Assembly: GCA_043767805.1 (NCBI GenBank)
Contig: JAYUGC010000066.1
Coordinates: 5,597 to 69,596 of the forward strand
DNA from: Pseudomonadota bacterium
GTDB lineage: Bacteria > Bdellovibrionota > FAC87 > UBA2466
Direction of reading: 5' to 3'
DNA length: 64,000 nucleotides
Under the pieces are notes generated by a model. It saw only the letters and a program-made list of their open reading frames with translations, searched no databases and was not told the DNA's origin. This document shows positions 9,546 through 35,745 of the stretch, piece by piece (the stretch's first letter is position 1; each line of letters begins with the position of its first letter). The translations under genes were made by a program, and so were the position numbers.

Positions 9546-10178
9546 ATGGCATTGCGCCTTCTCCTCTGGCTCAGTTTGGCTTCGATTACCGCGCGGGGGG
9601 CGACCCACGTTGAGGCCGCCCTGTTGCGTCTAGACGGCTCTTACCCTTGGCGCCGGGTAGCGGAAGGCGTGCCCACGCTCGCTTATGGCGCGGTCACCGG
9701 TCTCGGCGGACTTTGGATCATGCTGGACTCTCGGCACCACAACGATACCGAGCGCACCGTCGGGGCGGTGGCTGGGGTTACCGGCGCCGTGATGCTGCTC
9801 GATAGTCTCGCGATGAGTTTCGGAAAGAGCTCTGGCGAGCATTTTATCGAGCACTACCGCGAAATGGGTCCGAACGGAGATGGGCTTTTCTCGACGAAAG
9901 ACGCTTACGCCGATGCCGCCCTCGCCCGTTTCGCAGAGACGAGCCGCTCCAGCCGGTACGTACGCGGGGCGTTGGCGCTCGTCAATGCGGCTCCTTACTT
10001 CTATTTTTATTTTTCCAATTCCCTCCGCTACCACAATGCCGTGTTTCTCGGCGGAGGCTTGGTCGCGATCGCGCTCTACCGCTTTCTCGTCCCGAGTCCA
10101 GAAGAAGGCGCGGCCTGTATTTTGATTGGCTCGAGTCCCGCGACGCCCACGAGCCTTGCCCTTCGGTGGAGCTTTTAG
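9546..10178 (+). CDS. hypothetical integral membrane protein
   Basis: 210 aa with several hydrophobic helices and a signal-like N-terminus. It lies immediately upstream of, and is contiguous with, the CDF transporter gene (stop at 10178, ATG at 10179). Confidence 0.45.
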   Translation: MALRLLLWLSLASITARGATHVEAALLRLDGSYPWRRVAEGVPTLAYGAVTGLGGLWIMLDSRHHNDTERTVGAVAGVTGAVMLLDSLAMSFGKSSGEHFIEHYREMGPNGDGLFSTKDAYADAALARFAETSRSSRYVRGALALVNAAPYFYFYFSNSLRYHNAVFLGGGLVAIALYRFLVPSPEEGAACILIGSSPATPTSLALRWSF

Positions 10179-11087
10179 ATGAGACACGGGCACGATCACC
10201 ATCACCACGACAGCGGCCCGTGCGCCCCGAAAAACACGCGCACTCTTTGGCTCGTTTTCTTTTTGTCCGGCGGCTACATGGTAGCCGAAGTGGTGGGCGG
10301 CCTTTGGACCGGCTCACTGGCCTTGCTCGCCGACGCGGCTCACATGGCGATCGACACGGGCGCCATCGCTCTCGGGCTTTTCGCCACTTGGATTGCGCAG
10401 CGCCCACCGACGGACGCAAAAACTTACGGTTACTACCGGGCGGAGATTCTGGCGGCTCTCCTTAACGGCTGCGTTCTCATCGGTGCGGCCGCCTGGATCA
10501 TCGCCGAGGCCCTTCCTCGTTTCAGCACTCCTCCGGAGATTAAAGGATCCGCGATGGCGATCATCGCCTCGGGCGGGCTCATCGTGAACGTCGTCTCGCT
10601 TTGGCTGATGCATGGAAGTGACAAGGATCATCTGAACATGCGTGGGGTTTGGCTTCACCTTGTCGGCGATACCTTGGGCTCGGTGGGCGCCATCACCGCG
10701 GCGGTGCTCATTTGGAAGTACGGCTGGAACCTCGCCGATCCGATCCTCTCCGTCGTCCTCACGTTACTCATCGTTTTCGGCGCCGGCCATTTACTCGTCG
10801 ACTGCGTGAACGTGCTTTTGGAAGGAGTTCCGAAGCACATCGATTTACCGGCGGTGAAACGCGACTTGGAAGCGGCGGGCGGTGTAAAAAATGTGCACGA
10901 CCTGCACGTTTGGCTTGTGACCAGCGGCCTCACCGCGCTCTCCGCGCACGTCACCGTAAACGAAGGCCGCGATCACTCCGAAGTCTTGCGCGTGCTCACC
11001 ACGCTCCTCCACGACCGTCACGGCATCGAGCACGTAACTTTACAACTCGAAGCCCCCACCTTCGCCCACCGCGACCTCCACGTCTAA
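10179..11087 (+). CDS. czcD: cation diffusion facilitator (CDF) family metal efflux transporter (CzcD/ZitB-like)
   Basis: His-rich N-terminus 'MRHGHDHHHHDS'. TM helices carry the metal-site motifs 'ALLADAAHMAIDTGA' and 'HLVGDTLGSVGAI'. The C-terminal cytoplasmic domain contains 'HDLHVW'. Confidence 0.85.
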   Translation: MRHGHDHHHHDSGPCAPKNTRTLWLVFFLSGGYMVAEVVGGLWTGSLALLADAAHMAIDTGAIALGLFATWIAQRPPTDAKTYGYYRAEILAALLNGCVLIGAAAWIIAEALPRFSTPPEIKGSAMAIIASGGLIVNVVSLWLMHGSDKDHLNMRGVWLHLVGDTLGSVGAITAAVLIWKYGWNLADPILSVVLTLLIVFGAGHLLVDCVNVLLEGVPKHIDLPAVKRDLEAAGGVKNVHDLHVWLVTSGLTALSAHVTVNEGRDHSEVLRVLTTLLHDRHGIEHVTLQLEAPTFAHRDLHV

Positions 11088-11118
11088 AAGGCCCCCCTCG
11101 CCGCGGCTACGCCGGCTC

Positions 11119-11147
11119 GCCAAAAGGTGTGTGGATACTTTTAGCCA
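11119..11147. repeat. left 29-bp inverted repeat of RAYT element
   Basis: Exact reverse complement of 11831-11859. Confidence 0.8.
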
Positions 11148-11182
11148 ACGACGGCACGATTCCTGCTTTCGAACGCCTCGCT

Positions 11183-11872
11183 ATGCCAAGAATGAAGCTT
11201 GTTCGAACCGCACGCGGCGTTTATCACATCACCAACAGAGTTAATCATAAACATGATTTTCCACTCCCACTCGAAGAGTGCTGGCCGATTTTCATGAATA
11301 TTTTAGAGAGGGTAACTGAGAACCTATCGGCGGAAATTCACGCTTTTGTCCTAATGTCTAACCACTATCATCTATTCCTAACGACCCCACTCTTCAACGT
11401 TGACGTAATAATGAAATATGTGAATCGGGAAGTAACCCGGGCGATCAGTCGGAAAACCGGTCTGATAAATCATATTTTCGGTGCGAGGTATCACCCCAGC
11501 CTTGTCTACAACCCACGAGACTTTGCTCACGTCCTGAAATACATATATAGAAATCCCGTGAAAGCAGGATTGGTAAAGAGCGTCGAACAATATCCTTTCT
11601 CCACCGTATCTAGCTTAGTTCACGCAAGTCGATTCGAATTTCTGAGAGCGAGCAAATTTTTCCCCGATGCCCTGTCCGGACTTCGCCCTGCGGAGAGATT
11701 ATTTTGGCTCAATGAGCCTCTGGCTAAAGAACAGGAAGAGCTGATTCGAAAGGCAAATAGGAGGCGAGAGTTTCAGTTCTCGAATCGCGTCGCCGAGCAG
11801 AAAGTGGCTGCCCAATTATCTCCGGCACCCTGGCTAAAAGTATCCACACACCTTTTGGCTAAGGGCTGCTGA
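11183..11872 (+). CDS. REP-associated tyrosine transposase (RAYT) / IS200-like Y1 HuH transposase
   Basis: 'ARGVYHITNRVNHKHDF' N-terminus, HuH motif 'VLMSNHYHLFL', and catalytic Tyr motif 'YIYRNPVKAGLV'. The ORF-track extension upstream (10649-11182) is Arg-rich and overlaps czcD, so it is not coding. The last 14 nt overlap the stop region of the convergent membrane-protein gene. Confidence 0.75.
   Translation: MPRMKLVRTARGVYHITNRVNHKHDFPLPLEECWPIFMNILERVTENLSAEIHAFVLMSNHYHLFLTTPLFNVDVIMKYVNREVTRAISRKTGLINHIFGARYHPSLVYNPRDFAHVLKYIYRNPVKAGLVKSVEQYPFSTVSSLVHASRFEFLRASKFFPDALSGLRPAERLFWLNEPLAKEQEELIRKANRRREFQFSNRVAEQKVAAQLSPAPWLKVSTHLLAKGC
11831..11859. repeat. right 29-bp inverted repeat of RAYT element
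   Basis: Exact reverse complement of 11119-11147. It ends precisely at the TAG stop of the minus-strand membrane-protein gene. Confidence 0.8.
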
Positions 11873-14585
11873 GGGTCCGGTCGGGGGTGGCGTTGGTGGT
11901 GGCGCCGATGAGGCGGATGGCGCGGATTTCTTGAGGGTGTAGGTAGGCGAGATAGAGGGTGTCGCCGGTGAATGCCTTCCACTGTAGGCAAGAACTCACT
12001 GGTACGCGGTAGGCGACCCTGCCCGCAGTCAGCGTTCTGAAATTAATGGCGCCCTTGTCGCTCGAAACGTTCAGGTGCCCGTCGGAGAGCGTGAACGCAT
12101 CCGGCACCACGCGCTCGAACTCGATTTCCAAAGCTTCCGCTTTGGAAGCCTTGTCGCGCGGAAGCTGAATCTCGGTCATCTGACCGTTGGCCGAGCTCGA
12201 TGTGCTGAATAAGACCGTATCGGCCCGTCCCGTTCGCCAGGCCAAACCATGAGCGAGCGCGAAACCCCAGTCGCAGCCTTCGAAAAAATTCGCCTGCCCG
12301 TTGTCGACTAGCCCGCGGACCGCCACCTTCTCGCGCCGCAGATCATCACGAATGAGAATCACGTGGTGCGAAAAGACCGCGAAAACGCGGTAGCTCTTCA
12401 AAACTTGCCGAGACAATTCGTAGTACCGCGTCTGCGCGGGCACTCCGTCAAAGCGAGCAAAGGGCGCGCTGCTCAAGTAAACGATCCACTCCGGCTTTTC
12501 CCGATCGAGCTCCTCGCCAATACGCCGCTGCTCTCTCGCGTTCGCGTACGGGTACTGATGCCGAAGCGGAACGGGCAGTTCCAAAAGATAATGAAATAGC
12601 GCGGGCTCGTTGGTGAAGTCGAAAACCTTCTCGCCCGCGAGCTTATGCGTGACAAAGAAATCCCGAAGCTCTCGTACGATTCTCAGAGAATCCTTACCGA
12701 GCTCTCCGTAACCCCACCTCGACAAGGACGAGCGAACCGCAGCGGGTTTAGCGTACCGCGCGGGCAGCGATTCGAAGTGCCACCACACGGATCGGGAAAG
12801 CGGAATGAGCAATACCGCCATGAGCGCGAGCCCCATGGGCTGCAAACCCCGGCCGCGGTACTCGGCCGGAAGCCGATGCTCCCACTGCCGATCGACCCAA
12901 GCCACGCCTTCCGCCATCATCCAGTAAACCAGAGGCAAGGCGAGCGAGACGTGGGCGAGGATGTGCTCGTCCGCGCGCGCTAAGAACTTCCGGTAGTAGA
13001 GAATAGCGAAAACGTTCCAGCCGAACATCACCGCGTCGAGCGGCAAAAGTTTCCCTGCGCGCACCCGGAAAGCGAGAAACAGCAGAGACGAGAAATACAC
13101 TATCCACGGAAAAAGCACCGCGAGGGTGAACCAGTTCGTGATTTTCCAAGGGATCGGAATGCCGACCGCGTAGATGTGTCCCGCCGCCAAATTCACGTAG
13201 CAGCTGATGTAAGCGCCCAGCGCGCCGAACACGGCGAGAAACGCCAGCCAGCCGACGAGAAACAAAGTTCCCCCGGCGAGTCCCGCTTTGGTGATCCGTA
13301 ACGCTTTGAACCAACGCTCGGACGGAATGCGATTGAAGGCTTCAAACCCGAAGAATCCACAGAAGAGGCCGAACGGCACGAAGAGGGCTTCGGGTGTCGC
13401 CACTACGAGCGCGATCGCACCGGCGCCCGTAAACGCCGCGAGCCTCGCCGAGCGGCGAGCTAGAGCAAGCGTCGCCAGGAAAAAAAGCGGGTAGAGAAAG
13501 AGGAACCGAAAGTTGAACCCGTCAAAAACAATGGGCCAAACCCAAGGCAAGAGCACCGCGGTCAGGGTCAGAAGCCAAGGGCGGCGGCGGAAGAAGAGGC
13601 AAAGCAAAACGTACTGCGAAAGAAAAAAGAGCGGCTTGGCGATGAGCGACACGCCCGCGTCCGCGCCCCAAACCGTATCTTCAAAGAAGCGATGCCCAAC
13701 CCAGGCAAAGATCGGATCTTGCAGAAGCCCGTGCTGGAACAGAAAGTCCCGCCAGGGGAACCCGCCCTGACGAAGCAAGAGGCTCGTAACCAGGGACTCG
13801 CCGTCATGATGAAGATGCAGCCAGGTGCGCGCCACCGGAGTTTCCGCCGTCAGCACGAAAATGAAGACCGGAAAAACCAGACCGAAGAAAACTTTGCGCT
13901 CGAGGGCCGCCGCGCTGGCCGCGTCCCTGACGCGGCCCAATCGGCGCGAAATCCATACGGCAAGACCCACGGTAGCCGCCGCCGCGAGCCAGAAGGGAAA
14001 CCAGGGATGCCCGTCCGTGCCCACGCGAGTGGCCTGCGAAGCTCCATAGAGCACGAAGGGGATGGCCGCCGAGAAAAGCGCATTCACCCAAGACGCGCCG
14101 ATTTCGTTGCCGTCGGGCACTCTCCGACGAATCCAGAGCGCCGCCCCATAGACGAGTCCCCCGTACAGCACGGCGACGAGTAAAGTCTGCGCGAAAAAAT
14201 TGCCGTGGCCGTAACAGACGGTGCCCAACCCAAAGACGAAGCCGGTGAACCAAAGCCGCATCATTCTGCCGACGCGAGACGCCCAGGTGGTCGGTGAGAC
14301 CTTGGGCTCGGGAACATCCTTCAGCCAGGACTCAAACCAGACCGGCGTGAACTGCTCCCAGGAAAAGCGGTGGCGCCTGAGCCGCAAGAAAATCCAGGCG
14401 GCAAACAGCGGCATGCCGATCGCTTCCAATAGGTACGCTTTGAAATAGAGATCGATGTTGAAATTGGCAAAAAGCGGATATCCCATCAGGTCCGTGCTGG
14501 GATTAAACCCACGCGGCGTGACGAGCCAGACCAAGGCCATCGTCACTTGGGCCATGACTAAGGAGAGCACCAGGCGAAGCGTCAC
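11859..14585 (-). CDS. large polytopic membrane protein (908 aa) with C-terminal soluble domain; GT-C-like architecture (unassigned)
   Basis: About 550 aa of repeated hydrophobic helices are followed by a ~350-aa hydrophilic C-terminal region. It is the last gene of an overlapping 5-gene minus-strand operon (its start overlaps the stop of the FAD oxidoreductase gene). No catalytic motif recognised. Confidence 0.55.
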   Translation of the reverse strand: MTLRLVLSLVMAQVTMALVWLVTPRGFNPSTDLMGYPLFANFNIDLYFKAYLLEAIGMPLFAAWIFLRLRRHRFSWEQFTPVWFESWLKDVPEPKVSPTTWASRVGRMMRLWFTGFVFGLGTVCYGHGNFFAQTLLVAVLYGGLVYGAALWIRRRVPDGNEIGASWVNALFSAAIPFVLYGASQATRVGTDGHPWFPFWLAAAATVGLAVWISRRLGRVRDAASAAALERKVFFGLVFPVFIFVLTAETPVARTWLHLHHDGESLVTSLLLRQGGFPWRDFLFQHGLLQDPIFAWVGHRFFEDTVWGADAGVSLIAKPLFFLSQYVLLCLFFRRRPWLLTLTAVLLPWVWPIVFDGFNFRFLFLYPLFFLATLALARRSARLAAFTGAGAIALVVATPEALFVPFGLFCGFFGFEAFNRIPSERWFKALRITKAGLAGGTLFLVGWLAFLAVFGALGAYISCYVNLAAGHIYAVGIPIPWKITNWFTLAVLFPWIVYFSSLLFLAFRVRAGKLLPLDAVMFGWNVFAILYYRKFLARADEHILAHVSLALPLVYWMMAEGVAWVDRQWEHRLPAEYRGRGLQPMGLALMAVLLIPLSRSVWWHFESLPARYAKPAAVRSSLSRWGYGELGKDSLRIVRELRDFFVTHKLAGEKVFDFTNEPALFHYLLELPVPLRHQYPYANAREQRRIGEELDREKPEWIVYLSSAPFARFDGVPAQTRYYELSRQVLKSYRVFAVFSHHVILIRDDLRREKVAVRGLVDNGQANFFEGCDWGFALAHGLAWRTGRADTVLFSTSSSANGQMTEIQLPRDKASKAEALEIEFERVVPDAFTLSDGHLNVSSDKGAINFRTLTAGRVAYRVPVSSCLQWKAFTGDTLYLAYLHPQEIRAIRLIGATTNATPDRTLSSP

Positions 14586-33034: not shown

Positions 33035-34000
33035 ATGCCCGCACCCAAACAACAAAACGGACTTTTCCAAGGCATCTACGAGTTCCAAGATCCGTCGGGC
33101 ACTTTGCTCGCGGCTCGTATCCCGGCCTCCGGCTCCGTGGATCTCTACGACGGCACGACTCTCGTAGTGCGGCCCAATCAGTGCGCGATGTTCGTGCACA
33201 AAGGCCAAGTCGCCGACATTCTCACCCAAGGCACGCATACGCTTCGCACCGAGAACGTTCCGGTGCTCACCCGACTCGCGAACTGGCGCAAAGGGTTTCA
33301 GAGCCCGGTGCGCGCGGAAATCTGGTTCTTCTCTGGAATGGTTTTCACGGCTCGCCGCTGGGGAACCGCTCAACCGGTACTCACCAATCTCGACGCCGCC
33401 CCGATGCCTCTGCGCGGGTACGGCAACTACAATATTTTCATCCGCGATCCCCGCAAGCTTTTCAAAAAGCTCGTCGGCACGCGCAGCTTTCTGGACATCA
33501 CCGAGATCGAGGAGTTCGTCCAGAGCGAGATCCTCGCGGCTCTTCCCACTGCTCTCGAAGTCTTGAAATCGGTTTCCGATCTGGGCGCCTCGCACCGTCA
33601 GGTGGCAGCCAGGTTAGAAAACGATCTCGTGGCCCGGCTCGCCGAGTACGGCTTGTCGGTGACCAATCTCCAAGTGCTTGCTCTCATCCCGCCTCAGGAA
33701 GTGCTCGAGGCGCTGGACGCGAAGCTCGCCATGAAAGTGATCGGCAATCCGAAAGAGTACCTGCTTTACAAGGCGGCCAACTCCCTCGATGCCCTGCACG
33801 AGTCCGGCGGCAATGACTCGCTCCAGATGATGCTCGGGATGATGCTCGGCAAAGGACTCATCGGCGCCGATTATCACGAGAAAGAAAAATCTCTCGCGTC
33901 GGACAAGAGCGCGTCCCAGCAGCGCTGCGCTTCGTGCAACAACATCACCGATGCCGTGAACCGTTTTTGCCCTCATTGTGGCCGGGAGCTTGCTAAATGA
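33035..34000 (+). CDS. SPFH/band-7 domain protein with C-terminal zinc ribbon
   Basis: The SPFH-like core is followed by 'CASCNNITDAVNRFCPHCGREL' (CxxC...CxxC). Start is 'MPAPKQQNGLFQG'. Confidence 0.55.
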   Translation: MPAPKQQNGLFQGIYEFQDPSGTLLAARIPASGSVDLYDGTTLVVRPNQCAMFVHKGQVADILTQGTHTLRTENVPVLTRLANWRKGFQSPVRAEIWFFSGMVFTARRWGTAQPVLTNLDAAPMPLRGYGNYNIFIRDPRKLFKKLVGTRSFLDITEIEEFVQSEILAALPTALEVLKSVSDLGASHRQVAARLENDLVARLAEYGLSVTNLQVLALIPPQEVLEALDAKLAMKVIGNPKEYLLYKAANSLDALHESGGNDSLQMMLGMMLGKGLIGADYHEKEKSLASDKSASQQRCASCNNITDAVNRFCPHCGRELAK

Positions 34001-34692
34001 GTTTTTCGCTTCTGTGCACGGCGTGCGGAGCGCCGAGCGGTCCGGCCGTCGGAGTTTGTCCCTTCTGTAAAGCGGTTCAGTCTTCTCAAAAAGGGGAAGA
34101 GAATCCGACTCTCAAGCGCATCCGCCAGCTCTTCGAAGACGGTTATCTCGAGGACGCGCTCATCAACGCGGCCTCCGCGGAAAAAGAAAACGCGAAGCTC
34201 GCCTCCGATCTCGGTTTTCTTCTGACCTACGCGAAAATTCTCCTCGAGGCCGAAGGGCCGTCGAGCAAGATCCGATCGCTATTGACCAAAGCGAGTTTGC
34301 TGAAGCCCGACATGCCGGAAATCAGCGAGTATCTGGAGCTCATCGAGGCCAAAAGCCGGCTGAACCGCGAGCCAAATGATTTTGGCGAGCAGAATTTACG
34401 CCGCATCCTCGGGCACGCCCCGAAGAATGCTCATGTACTCTTTACTCTGGCGAGTCACCTCTTTTGGGTCGAGAGCAAGCCGGACGAAGCCGTGCCGCTC
34501 CTCCAAAAATGCGTCGACTATCGCCCCACTTTCTTACGCGCCTGGGCCTGTCTCGCCGCGATTCACGCGAAGCGCGGCGATGTGGCTCCTGCTCAGCAAG
34601 CGCTCCATAAGTGTCTCGCGCTGGAGAAAAATCCGGCGATGTATGCCTACTTCGAAAAGCTTCTAACCCAGACCATCGCCCGCGCCGCCTAA
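33997..34692 (+). CDS. zinc-ribbon + TPR-like helical repeat protein
   Basis: N-terminal 'CTACGAPSGPAVGVCPFCKAV' is a zinc ribbon, and the rest is helical-repeat-like. ATGA overlap with the SPFH gene indicates an operon. Confidence 0.5.
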   Translation: MSFSLLCTACGAPSGPAVGVCPFCKAVQSSQKGEENPTLKRIRQLFEDGYLEDALINAASAEKENAKLASDLGFLLTYAKILLEAEGPSSKIRSLLTKASLLKPDMPEISEYLELIEAKSRLNREPNDFGEQNLRRILGHAPKNAHVLFTLASHLFWVESKPDEAVPLLQKCVDYRPTFLRAWACLAAIHAKRGDVAPAQQALHKCLALEKNPAMYAYFEKLLTQTIARAA

Positions 34693-34710
34693 AGCCATTC
34701 GATCCGGGGC

Positions 34711-34848
34711 GGTTGCTGGTTGCTGGACCGAGGTAATCCATTAGTTCTCTCCCTTGCGGACTGCTCGTTAGCGGCAGTCCAATCTCAATAAGGAGTCCGT
34801 GAGGCTAAGATCAAAATAGTCTACCTCGGTCCAGCTTCCAGCAACCAG
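34711..34848. repeat. long imperfect inverted repeat / structured element in convergent intergenic region (possible bidirectional terminator, MITE-like element or sRNA)
   Basis: Left arm 'ggttgctggttgctggaccgaggta' (34711-34735) and right arm 'tacctcggtccagcttccagcaaccag' (34822-34848) share a perfect 14-bp core, 'gctggaccgaggta'/'tacctcggtccagc'. The ~86-nt spacer contains its own hairpin, 'ggactgc-tcgttagc-gcagtcc'. Confidence 0.35.
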
Positions 34849-34890
34849 TGACCGGGCCGGATCGGACGCGCGAAGCGCGGGTTCCCTGCC

Positions 34891-35745
34891 TTATCCCTTC
34901 CGAAGGCCTTTGTCGGCGTATTGATACTCGAGGAAGCGGCGCAAGATTCCTTGTTCCACTTTTCCTTTTTGGCGGGCGGGGACGCAGACGCGGGCGATGA
35001 GCTCGATTTGTCCCGGCTTCGGAATCGTGATCGTCACGCGGGCTTCGGTCGACGGCGTATCGAGCCCTCTTTTGCGGCCTAGCAGCTCGAAGTGCTCGCG
35101 CGCCTTTTGGGCGAACGGCTGGCAAATTTCCACGCAAGAGCTCATCAGCCAGGTCTCGGCCGTCCGCCAGTCGTAACTCGTCTCGAGTGGAACGGTGAAG
35201 ACATGGAGCACATAATGGTCCGTGTAGCTTTCATTTACTAGCGGCTTGAGCAGGAAGAGCGAGTTAGGAACCGAGATGGCTCGTCCCGTATATCCATGGG
35301 TCATATGCCCCGGCCCGATCTCCAAAACGGTGGTGGTAAAGGCGTTCTGATCGATGACGTCCCCCCGAATGCCTTCGATTTCGATCCGGTCTCCGATGGA
35401 GAAGGACTGCGACAAAGTCTTTACGAACGTTCCGCCGAGACAGGCCAGCGGATCGCGCACCGCCAAGACCACGGCGGCGGCGATGGCGACGATGGAGAGC
35501 GCCATCGATCTCAGCTGGGTCGCCCAGATAATGGTCACCCCGAAGAGAAAGAGCACGGCCCAGACGTTCCTCAAGGTGACCATGAGCCAGCGCTGGGTGT
35601 CGCGGTTGGCAAACTTCAAATTGCGCACCAGGCGATTGCCGATAAATCTCAAGGCGAAGACCAAAATGACGAAGGCGATGGAGGCGAACAGCTTTTGAAA
35701 CACGTCCGCCCGGTGGATAAGCGCAATGAGAGTTTGCGAGGTCAT
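34891..35745 (-). CDS. mscS: small-conductance mechanosensitive channel (MscS family)
   Basis: N-terminal TM helices, then the MscS beta-domain motif 'FSIGDRIEIEGIRGDVIDQNAFTTTVLE'. Confidence 0.8.
   Translation of the reverse strand: MTSQTLIALIHRADVFQKLFASIAFVILVFALRFIGNRLVRNLKFANRDTQRWLMVTLRNVWAVLFLFGVTIIWATQLRSMALSIVAIAAAVVLAVRDPLACLGGTFVKTLSQSFSIGDRIEIEGIRGDVIDQNAFTTTVLEIGPGHMTHGYTGRAISVPNSLFLLKPLVNESYTDHYVLHVFTVPLETSYDWRTAETWLMSSCVEICQPFAQKAREHFELLGRKRGLDTPSTEARVTITIPKPGQIELIARVCVPARQKGKVEQGILRRFLEYQYADKGLRKG

Follow-up and report, generated by a model that had tools for sequence, protein, structure and literature searches.

A predicted RAYT-class transposase gene bracketed by inverted, non-GTAG hairpins in a Bdellovibrionota genome

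What kind of unit is a lone transposase gene that sits between two perfect inverted repeats in an otherwise repeat-poor stretch of bacterial DNA? The question is raised by a locus in a 64-kb stretch of the Bdellovibrionota contig JAYUGC010000066.1 (this whole stretch is called the window hereafter, and coordinates are window positions unless another contig is named). An earlier note had described the gene as a REP (repetitive extragenic palindrome)-associated tyrosine transposase (RAYT) of the IS200-like Y1 type, recently acquired and possibly still mobile. The reading favoured here, to which we give a probability of roughly 0.8, is a REPtron/TIRtron-type unit, in which a gene for a RAYT-class Y1 HUH single-stranded DNA endonuclease/ligase lies between two copies of its cognate hairpin in inverted orientation.

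The 29-nt repeat GCCAAAAGGTGTGTGGATACTTTTAGCCA and its reverse complement are 100% complementary, with 683 nt between the two arms (Table 1), and no inverted repeat of the window ranks above this pair. Allowing 3 mismatches still leaves these two matches as the only ones, where shuffled sequences lead one to expect 0; the perfect repeats reported in the earlier note are thereby confirmed, as is its failure to see a second copy of the 29-mer, since relaxed searches likewise returned none. The single open reading frame (ORF) between the arms encodes 229 aa with an HYH motif (H61/H63) and a YIYRNP motif (Y120), in agreement with the single HuH-Tyr gene that had been described. Each arm can itself be folded into a hairpin, whose A/T-rich stem of 8 bp contains one C.A mismatch (G.T on the opposite strand) and whose 11-nt loop reads GTGTGTGGATA.

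The protein is clearly nearest to the RAYT family in sequence and is not predicted to be IS200-like, because it scores 77.8 bits against the NCBIfam model REP_Tyr_transpos (NF047646, equivalog cut-off 80) and 16.8 bits against the IS200 model (cut-off 55), and its best relative of solved structure is E. coli TnpA-REP (4ER8, E 1e-11). The RAYT-type Y1 HUH part of the earlier designation therefore stands, and the IS200-like part does not. Assignment to the Y1 HUH superfamily follows from a match to Pfam Y1_Tnp (PF01797) of 25.7 bits, above the gathering cut-off of 23. In the alignment to 4ER8, H61-Y-H63 corresponds to H59-M-H61 and Y120 to Y115, and the HUH and catalytic tyrosine residues are invariant across 32 aligned family members, so that the profile check of the tyrosine proposed in the earlier note came out in favour of an intact active site. 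The AlphaFold (AF2) model from the 32 family members (mean predicted local distance difference test, pLDDT, 92) has 4ER8 as its top structural match (E 1.7e-9), followed by the IS200, ISDra2 and IS608 transposases (core E about 1e-5). The family has about 85 additional C-terminal residues, which are confidently helical and contain a conserved W175-L-N ... F197 motif; a Pfam search of the C-terminal 89 aa (residues 141-229) at E<=10 returned nothing, including Bac_DnaA_C, HTH_23 and HTH_28. The residues with which E. coli TnpA-REP reads the GTAG foot of its REP are W94, Q95, E100, H101 and R104 (PMC6006769). They align with F99, G100, P105, S106 and Y109 of the window protein, of which F99 and G100 hardly vary, if at all, across the family alignment.

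The hairpin is found dispersed in related genomes. Exact matches to its 19-nt core, AAGGTGTGTGGAYACTTTT, were sought in one genome per species, and all 48 are confined to three Bdellovibrionota metagenome-assembled genomes (MAGs): the Bdellovibrionaceae isolate nzgw169 (38 copies on 23 contigs), the Bdellovibrionota isolate Co_metawrap_796 (9 copies) and a Pseudobdellovibrionaceae MAG (1 copy). The repeat unit of nzgw169 reads GAAAAAG-GTGTGTGGATA-CTTTTTC, and most of its copies there stand in inverted pairs. Sixteen core pairs form inverted doublets 25-43 nt apart, all of them "+ then -", in the same head-to-head orientation as the window arms; judged by their sequence, these doublets are similar to REPINs (REP doublets forming hairpins). 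The loop is invariant and the pair at the stem base covaries (G-C 15, U-A 6, C-G 4), with a score matched in 1/500 shuffles. Neither the arm nor the REP consensus GAAAAAGGTGTGTGGATACTTTTTC has a 5' GT[AG]G foot. On contig L021 of nzgw169 a cognate RAYT, 56% identical to the window protein, lies between two such hairpins 693 nt apart. The view that the flanks are unlike REPs can thus no longer be held, as each arm is a REP-like hairpin with a core that related MAGs carry at scattered sites, both singly and in inverted doublets. The possibility, raised in the earlier note, that the 29-mer is a common REP receives a split answer: the exact stem variant of the window was found nowhere else, and the core is a common REP in relatives.

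With regard to the placement of the dispersed copies, 20 of the 48 (nzgw169 and Co_metawrap_796; L010-L042) have the stop codon of an ORF of at least 100 aa within 10 nt on their 5' (outer) side, while adjacency to a stop on the 3' side was seen only once among singlet hairpins. This could reflect a preference for insertion beside TAA/TAG, or the tolerance of post-stop sites only in packed genomes. A TA(A)G "foot" was considered as part of the REP and rejected, being present in only about a third of the copies; the TA(A)G beside hairpins more likely reflects the real stop codons of neighbouring genes. A single exact core match also occurs on a viral contig (IMG/VR IMGVR_UViG_3300033069_000141, L048, 4368-4386), apparently within an ORF, and may be coding or due to chance, about one chance match being expected by a rough estimate.

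The association of gene and hairpin is a property of the family. A protein search returned 36 relatives, with identities to the window protein of at most 60%, and the few that are named are labelled Bdellovibrio, Bdellovibrionaceae or Pseudobdellovibrionaceae. Homologous loci were inspected in L001, L003, L004, L005 (a complete B. bacteriovorus genome) and L021, and all five have the arm-gene-arm layout, with inverted arms 19-52 nt long and 660-770 nt apart and a left arm that mostly lies about 30-35 nt from the start codon. In L001, L003, L004 and L005 each arm contains its own palindrome. Protein and hairpin change together, since the 56-60% identical relatives keep the core (nearly that of the window in L001, at 60%) and the 44-49% identical ones carry other hairpins, two of these again with an 11-nt loop. 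The hairpin of L005 is AAAAG-GTACGGACTTA-CTTTT and that of L004 GGTACC-GCCTACTTTCT-GGTACC. The repeat of the L003 RAYT (49% identical) is a near-perfect 14-16-bp palindrome, GTACGAAAAGGGCC-N-GGCCCTTTTCGTAC, and two extra copies of this arm type lie 9.5 kb from the gene (repeat positions 455-562 and 9944-9976 / 10699-10727 of L003); one protein family is thus paired with hairpins of different types, which are dispersed to differing extents in different genomes.

At all inspected loci the 3' arm either overlaps the ORF end or lies directly against it. The TGA stop of L001 sits in the stem, at a place where the window stem reads CTA and the ORF runs on for 13 codons; the L021 ORF also passes through its arm, in a different frame. 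Because read-through varies in this way, the arm-encoded tail is incidental, and the final 13 codons of the window RAYT, read through the right arm, are not conserved. Inverted repeats flanking the gene, which had been taken for a departure from the RAYT norm, are in fact the published norm, including the overlap of the 3' repeat with the gene (PMC6006769, PMC3733652). The gene contexts of the unit are unrelated among all six genomes, and the unit often fits tightly against the ends of adjacent genes, with gaps of 2 nt and 7 nt to the genes on either side in L005 and a left hairpin that begins directly after a TAA in L001. Synteny of the window with the nzgw169 RAYT locus was suspected from their like right junctions and rejected, the neighbour proteins being unrelated.

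The base composition of the gene is also shared by the family. Within the window, the arms enclose DNA with a G+C content (GC) of 0.44-0.47, compared with about 0.58-0.65 in the flanks, and the RAYT gene is the only 690-nt stretch below 50% GC, so the AT-rich interior described earlier is real. The gene is GC-poorer than its surroundings in six of six genomes whatever the GC of the host (0.467 against 0.593 in the window, 0.484 against 0.571 in L001, 0.468 against 0.545 in L003, 0.489 against 0.599 in L004, 0.398 against 0.447 in L005 and 0.475 against 0.511 in L021). Since the deficit is common to the family, AT-richness does not date the arrival of the unit in the window genome, and the use of low GC as a sign of recent acquisition has to be given up.

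That the unit is a real insertion into a convergent gene pair is shown by comparison of the orthologous locus, as the earlier note had suggested. In L045 (GCA_964653655.1), which has orthologues of the 908-aa protein (62% identical) and of the cation-efflux protein (80% identical) and shares the upstream order of a 210-aa protein, a GFO_IDH_MocA protein and the efflux gene, the stop codons of the convergent pair overlap in TTAA, with neither transposase nor hairpin between them. The same pair is found in L047 (efflux gene 75% and membrane protein 50% identical), with a 5-nt gap and no RAYT; L046 was left out of the comparison, its downstream gene being different. The efflux and 908-aa proteins of the window retain their native C-termini, and the extra DNA amounts to 771 nt (11088-11858), precisely between the two stop codons. 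It consists of a 31-nt GC-rich spacer, which is counted within it because it is missing from both L045 and L047, and of the 741-nt arm-gene-arm unit, whose last base (11859) is shared with the neighbour's stop codon. CTAA is present at both outer junctions, and may be a duplicated target or no more than the stop codons that the two genes need. An old date of insertion is conceivable, because the empty-site genomes are distant (neighbour proteins 50-80% identical). Of the recent and possibly mobile acquisition that had been proposed, the insertion is thus borne out by two empty sites, and the recency is not shown, as even the nearest empty-site neighbour protein is only about 80% identical.

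The junctions differ on the two sides. The final base of the right arm is the G of the minus-strand TAG of the 908-aa gene, and the RAYT ORF passes through this arm and stops 13 nt past it, giving the 14-nt overlap with the neighbouring gene that had been noted before. The neighbour is convergent to the RAYT gene and so is not the last gene of an upstream operon, as it had been called; the position of its TAG was given correctly. Likewise, the unit is flush against a stop codon on the right and not on the left, where the spacer separates the arm from the efflux stop at 11087.

The unit can be compared with three known systems. RAYT genes flanked by inverted REPs are called REPtrons, and their REPs are amplified as REPIN doublets (PMC3116915, PMC6006769); the canonical GTAG-REP RAYTs are subclasses 2.2, 2.4, 2.5, 2.7 and 2.8, and the Y motif of class 2 is Y---NP (PMC6006769). 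TIRtrons or TIRYTs (Di Nocera et al. 2013) have a RAYT-like gene within terminal inverted repeats (TIRs) that are long and have no relation to GTAG REPs; the TIRs are partly self-complementary, overlap the gene at its 3' end and form families of moderate size, made up of singles or dimers, which some genomes have and others lack (PMC3733652). Most TIRYTs were placed by Quentin et al. 2018 in subclass 2.1 (Bertels group 1), characterized by the HUH motif NH[YF]H, a median length of 238 aa, a C-terminal helix-turn-helix (HTH)-like domain and no canonical REP (PMC6006769). Bertels group 1 contains the most IS-like RAYTs, with more horizontal transfer and flanking 16-mers that are only moderately repeated (PMC5581495).

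With the REPtrons (E. coli TnpA-REP 4ER8, Pseudomonas REPIN-RAYT) the unit has in common the Y1 HUH fold, by best match of both sequence and structure, a Y motif that fits Y---NP, a single-copy gene within inverted hairpin repeats, intergenic between convergent genes, and a hairpin dispersed in related genomes as singlets and head-to-head doublets. It differs from them in its hairpin, which lacks the GT[AG]G foot, is A/T- and not G/C-rich and has the 11-nt loop as its invariant part, in the replacement of all GTAG-reading residues, in a protein of 229 aa compared with 165, with its conserved additional C-terminal helical region, and in that dispersal is unproven in the window genome itself. 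It is the foot and the W94/Q95/R104-type residues, both of them missing here, that set the canonical GTAG-REP RAYTs apart. The likeness to TIRtrons lies in the long terminal inverted repeats (29 nt, 100%), the overlap of the 3' repeat with the gene end, the partly self-complementary arms, the HUH motif NHYH, a length close to the 238-aa median, a C-terminal extension, and hairpin families present as singles or dimers in some genomes and missing from others. Unlike TIRtrons, the unit has a repeat without GGGGWSAS, the motif of most described TIRs (nine matches in the window, fewer than expected by chance, and none within 7 kb of the element), a Y motif YIYRNP in place of YIELNP or Y[IV]HLNP, a W motif FG in place of W[EQ] or FQ, and a C-terminal region that gave no match to Bac_DnaA_C, HTH_23 or HTH_28 in the Pfam search. 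IS200/IS605 elements (IS608, ISDra2) share the HUH/Tyr catalytic core and hairpins near the ends, and the window insertion is compatible with their insertion without an obvious target duplication. In contrast to them, the protein has a low IS200 score and a Y motif with NP and not Q, the hairpins are inverted and not on the same strand, there is no tnpB, and no near-identical multi-copy genes were seen. We therefore file the unit as a putative class-2 RAYT in a REPtron/TIRtron arrangement, the subclasses having been compared by their published descriptions; its predicted features place it outside both the canonical GTAG-REP RAYTs and the IS200/IS605 elements. Such arrangements are known from other bacteria (PMC6006769, PMC3733652, PMC5581495), and the window holds an ordinary new example, a Bdellovibrionota-type RAYT unit with non-GTAG hairpins.

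By analogy with the biochemistry of IS608 and ISDra2 of the IS200/IS605 family and of E. coli TnpA-REP, the protein would bind to the hairpin once this has folded on single-stranded DNA, the replication fork being one possible place, and Y120 would cut beside it through a 5'-phosphotyrosine and then rejoin the strands. Hairpin singlets and doublets could in this way be copied to new intergenic sites, and the gene-carrying unit itself would have moved at least once. Recognition probably relies on the loop and the shape of the stem rather than on a GTAG foot, given that the GTAG-reading residues are replaced and that it is the loop which stays invariant in the repeat.

Several observations count against the REPtron/TIRtron reading or limit it. 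The hairpins of the arms are thermodynamically weak (z about -0.8), and the NCBIfam RAYT score falls 2 bits short of the curated cut-off. RAYT activity is only predicted, and this applies to every member of the family. The 64 kb hold no further hairpin copy when up to 3 mismatches are allowed in the 19-mer or up to 2 in the 13-nt loop core, and the stem variant of the window matched no other sequence searched, so that a REP population in the window genome is unproven. Furthermore, as the arms are inverted, the two ends of one strand present complementary and not identical hairpins, and the same-strand excision scheme of the IS608 type is therefore not directly transferable. To our knowledge, excision of inverted doublets or of a whole gene-plus-hairpins unit is not known for any RAYT.

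If the nzgw169 MAG has a size of a few Mb, its 38 cores would amount, at a guess, to one per several tens of kb, and at such a density a 64-kb window without a further copy is not surprising. Within 12-20 kb around the RAYT genes of L001, L004 and L005 there are no extra copies of their own arms. A scan of the JGI metagenome collection gave 0 matches for the window's stem variant and just 2 short contigs with the general core. The RAYT gene is single-copy wherever this can be judged (one in the window, one place per genome for P0028), and a tblastn search found only distant RAYTs (<35% identity) on plasmids and none in phages.

Three independent Logan assemblies that carry the efflux gene of the window at 100% identity end at 11146/11147, the inner edge of the left arm (L007 at 5502, L008 at 4014 and L009 at 3128). 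Arms sharing 29 nt are too short to branch an assembly graph with k=31; if this premise holds, the ends imply another sequence in these samples that shares at least 30 nt up to that base. That sequence could stem from more copies, from an allele without the gene or from an inverted segment.

The best-surviving alternative, to which we would give slightly less than an even chance, is a RAYT that has been fully domesticated, is inherited vertically and keeps up a REP/REPIN population across the genome, the window being free of further copies by sampling. This is described as the usual state of RAYTs (PMC5581495; RAREFAN preprint 10.1101/2022.05.22.493013), and it would be in line with the REPIN-like populations with the same loop in nzgw169 and Co_metawrap_796, with the extra arm copies of L003, with the assembly breaks at the arm and with the single-copy gene. 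It sits less well with the complete lack of extra copies in 64 kb and around the genes of L001, L004 and L005, with a locus that varies from genome to genome and lacks the unit in two relatives, and with a stem variant that is unmatched in the JGI collection.

A further alternative, along the lines of the earlier note, is an IS200-like element of recent arrival, still autonomous, that transposes in one piece and has not (yet) seeded a REP/REPIN population in the window genome. Such an element would account for arms identical at 29/29 positions, an intact ORF with all catalytic residues, the two empty sites, the lack of synteny across all six genomes, the absence of other copies from the 64 kb and of the stem variant from other sequences, and the lowest-GC stretch of the window, and group 1 RAYTs are reported to be the most IS-like, with more horizontal transfer (PMC5581495). 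We consider it unlikely all the same: the distance of the empty-site genomes allows an old insertion, the family-wide GC deficit gives no date, plasmids and phages hold no close homologue, the gene is single-copy, and relatives with the same hairpin have dispersed populations. The copy-free 64 kb are also unsurprising at the nzgw169 density (an estimate, the size of this MAG not being known), and the three assembly breaks need another sequence sharing at least 30 nt.

A bolder version, which we regard as rather improbable, would have an autonomous RAYT near its progenitor state, with the unit transposed into a site with virtually no intergenic DNA and the protein representing a new Bdellovibrionota-centred subclass (NHYH / FG / YIYRNP, with a WLN C-terminal domain) that reads its hairpin by the 11-nt loop and not by a GTAG foot. 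If true, a progenitor-state RAYT would be a tractable model for the birth of REP/REPIN populations from a mobile gene.

Very little speaks for the arms being the recombination sites of an invertible segment, a switch of the phase-variation kind, and not transposon ends. A polymorphic inversion between the arms would account for the three assemblies that stop at the inner edge of the left arm. There is, however, no serine or tyrosine recombinase in or beside the segment, a promoter scan found no promoter-like signal to redirect, and the same repeat also occurs as short doublets with nothing to invert; we know of no Y1 HUH enzyme shown to catalyse inversion. A chance repeat, or a terminator pair of the two convergent genes unrelated to the enclosed gene, can be practically dismissed despite the position of the arms directly past two convergent 3' ends, as 0/100 shuffles yield such a repeat, the stems are weak and have no T-run, all inspected homologues share the arm-gene-arm layout, their arms changing together with the protein, and a promoter/terminator scan gave nothing above shuffles.

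The REPtron/TIRtron-type unit is of interest beyond this genome because the origins of REPs and REPINs, and the movement of RAYT genes together with their flanking repeats, have been argued mainly from Pseudomonas and enterobacteria. The locus supplies a clean comparison of occupied and empty sites for a whole RAYT unit outside the usual taxa, and a hairpin type that lacks a GTAG foot, combines an A/T stem with a conserved loop, changes in step with the protein and has been amplified in some relatives and apparently not in others. It also calls for caution in annotation, since a RAYT that is poor in GC and lies between perfect inverted repeats need not, on these grounds alone, be a recent horizontal acquisition.

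Table 1 Positions of the RAYT unit, its neighbours and two further ORFs in the window
Feature	Position	Strand	Basis
Left arm, REP-like hairpin GCCAAAAG-GTGTGTGGATA-CTTTTAGC(CA)	11119..11147	+	Perfect repeat, hairpin fold, core dispersed in related MAGs, stem-base covariation
Predicted RAYT-class Y1 HUH transposase gene, 229 aa, ATG to TGA	11183..11872	+	Pfam, NCBIfam, 4ER8 match, AF2 model, family alignment
Right arm, exact reverse complement of left arm, inside RAYT ORF 3' end	11831..11859	-	Repeat search
GC-rich 31-nt spacer AAGGCCCCCCTCGCCGCGGCTACGCCGGCTC, efflux stop to left arm	11088..11118	.	Missing from both empty sites
Cation diffusion facilitator (efflux) gene, left flank	10179..11087	+	Pfam Cation_efflux 5e-43, ZT_dimer; L045 orthologue 80% identical
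908-aa membrane protein gene, right flank, convergent	11859..14585	-	No Pfam family; orthologue P0038 in L045, 62% identical
ORF left of the 34693-34890 hairpin	33997..34692	+	
ORF right of the 34693-34890 hairpin	34891..35745	-	

Two minor observations concern other parts of the sequence. The spacer between the efflux gene and the left arm contains GCCGCGGC and GCCGGC palindromes. Neither a tRNA gene nor, at gathering score, an Rfam family was found in positions 1-64000, and this includes the gap between two other convergent ORFs (34693-34890), which is occupied by an imperfect hairpin of about 170 nt (arms 34700-34742 / 34815-34864) with a predicted RNA fold of -97.8 kcal/mol (z = -6.5 compared with shuffles).

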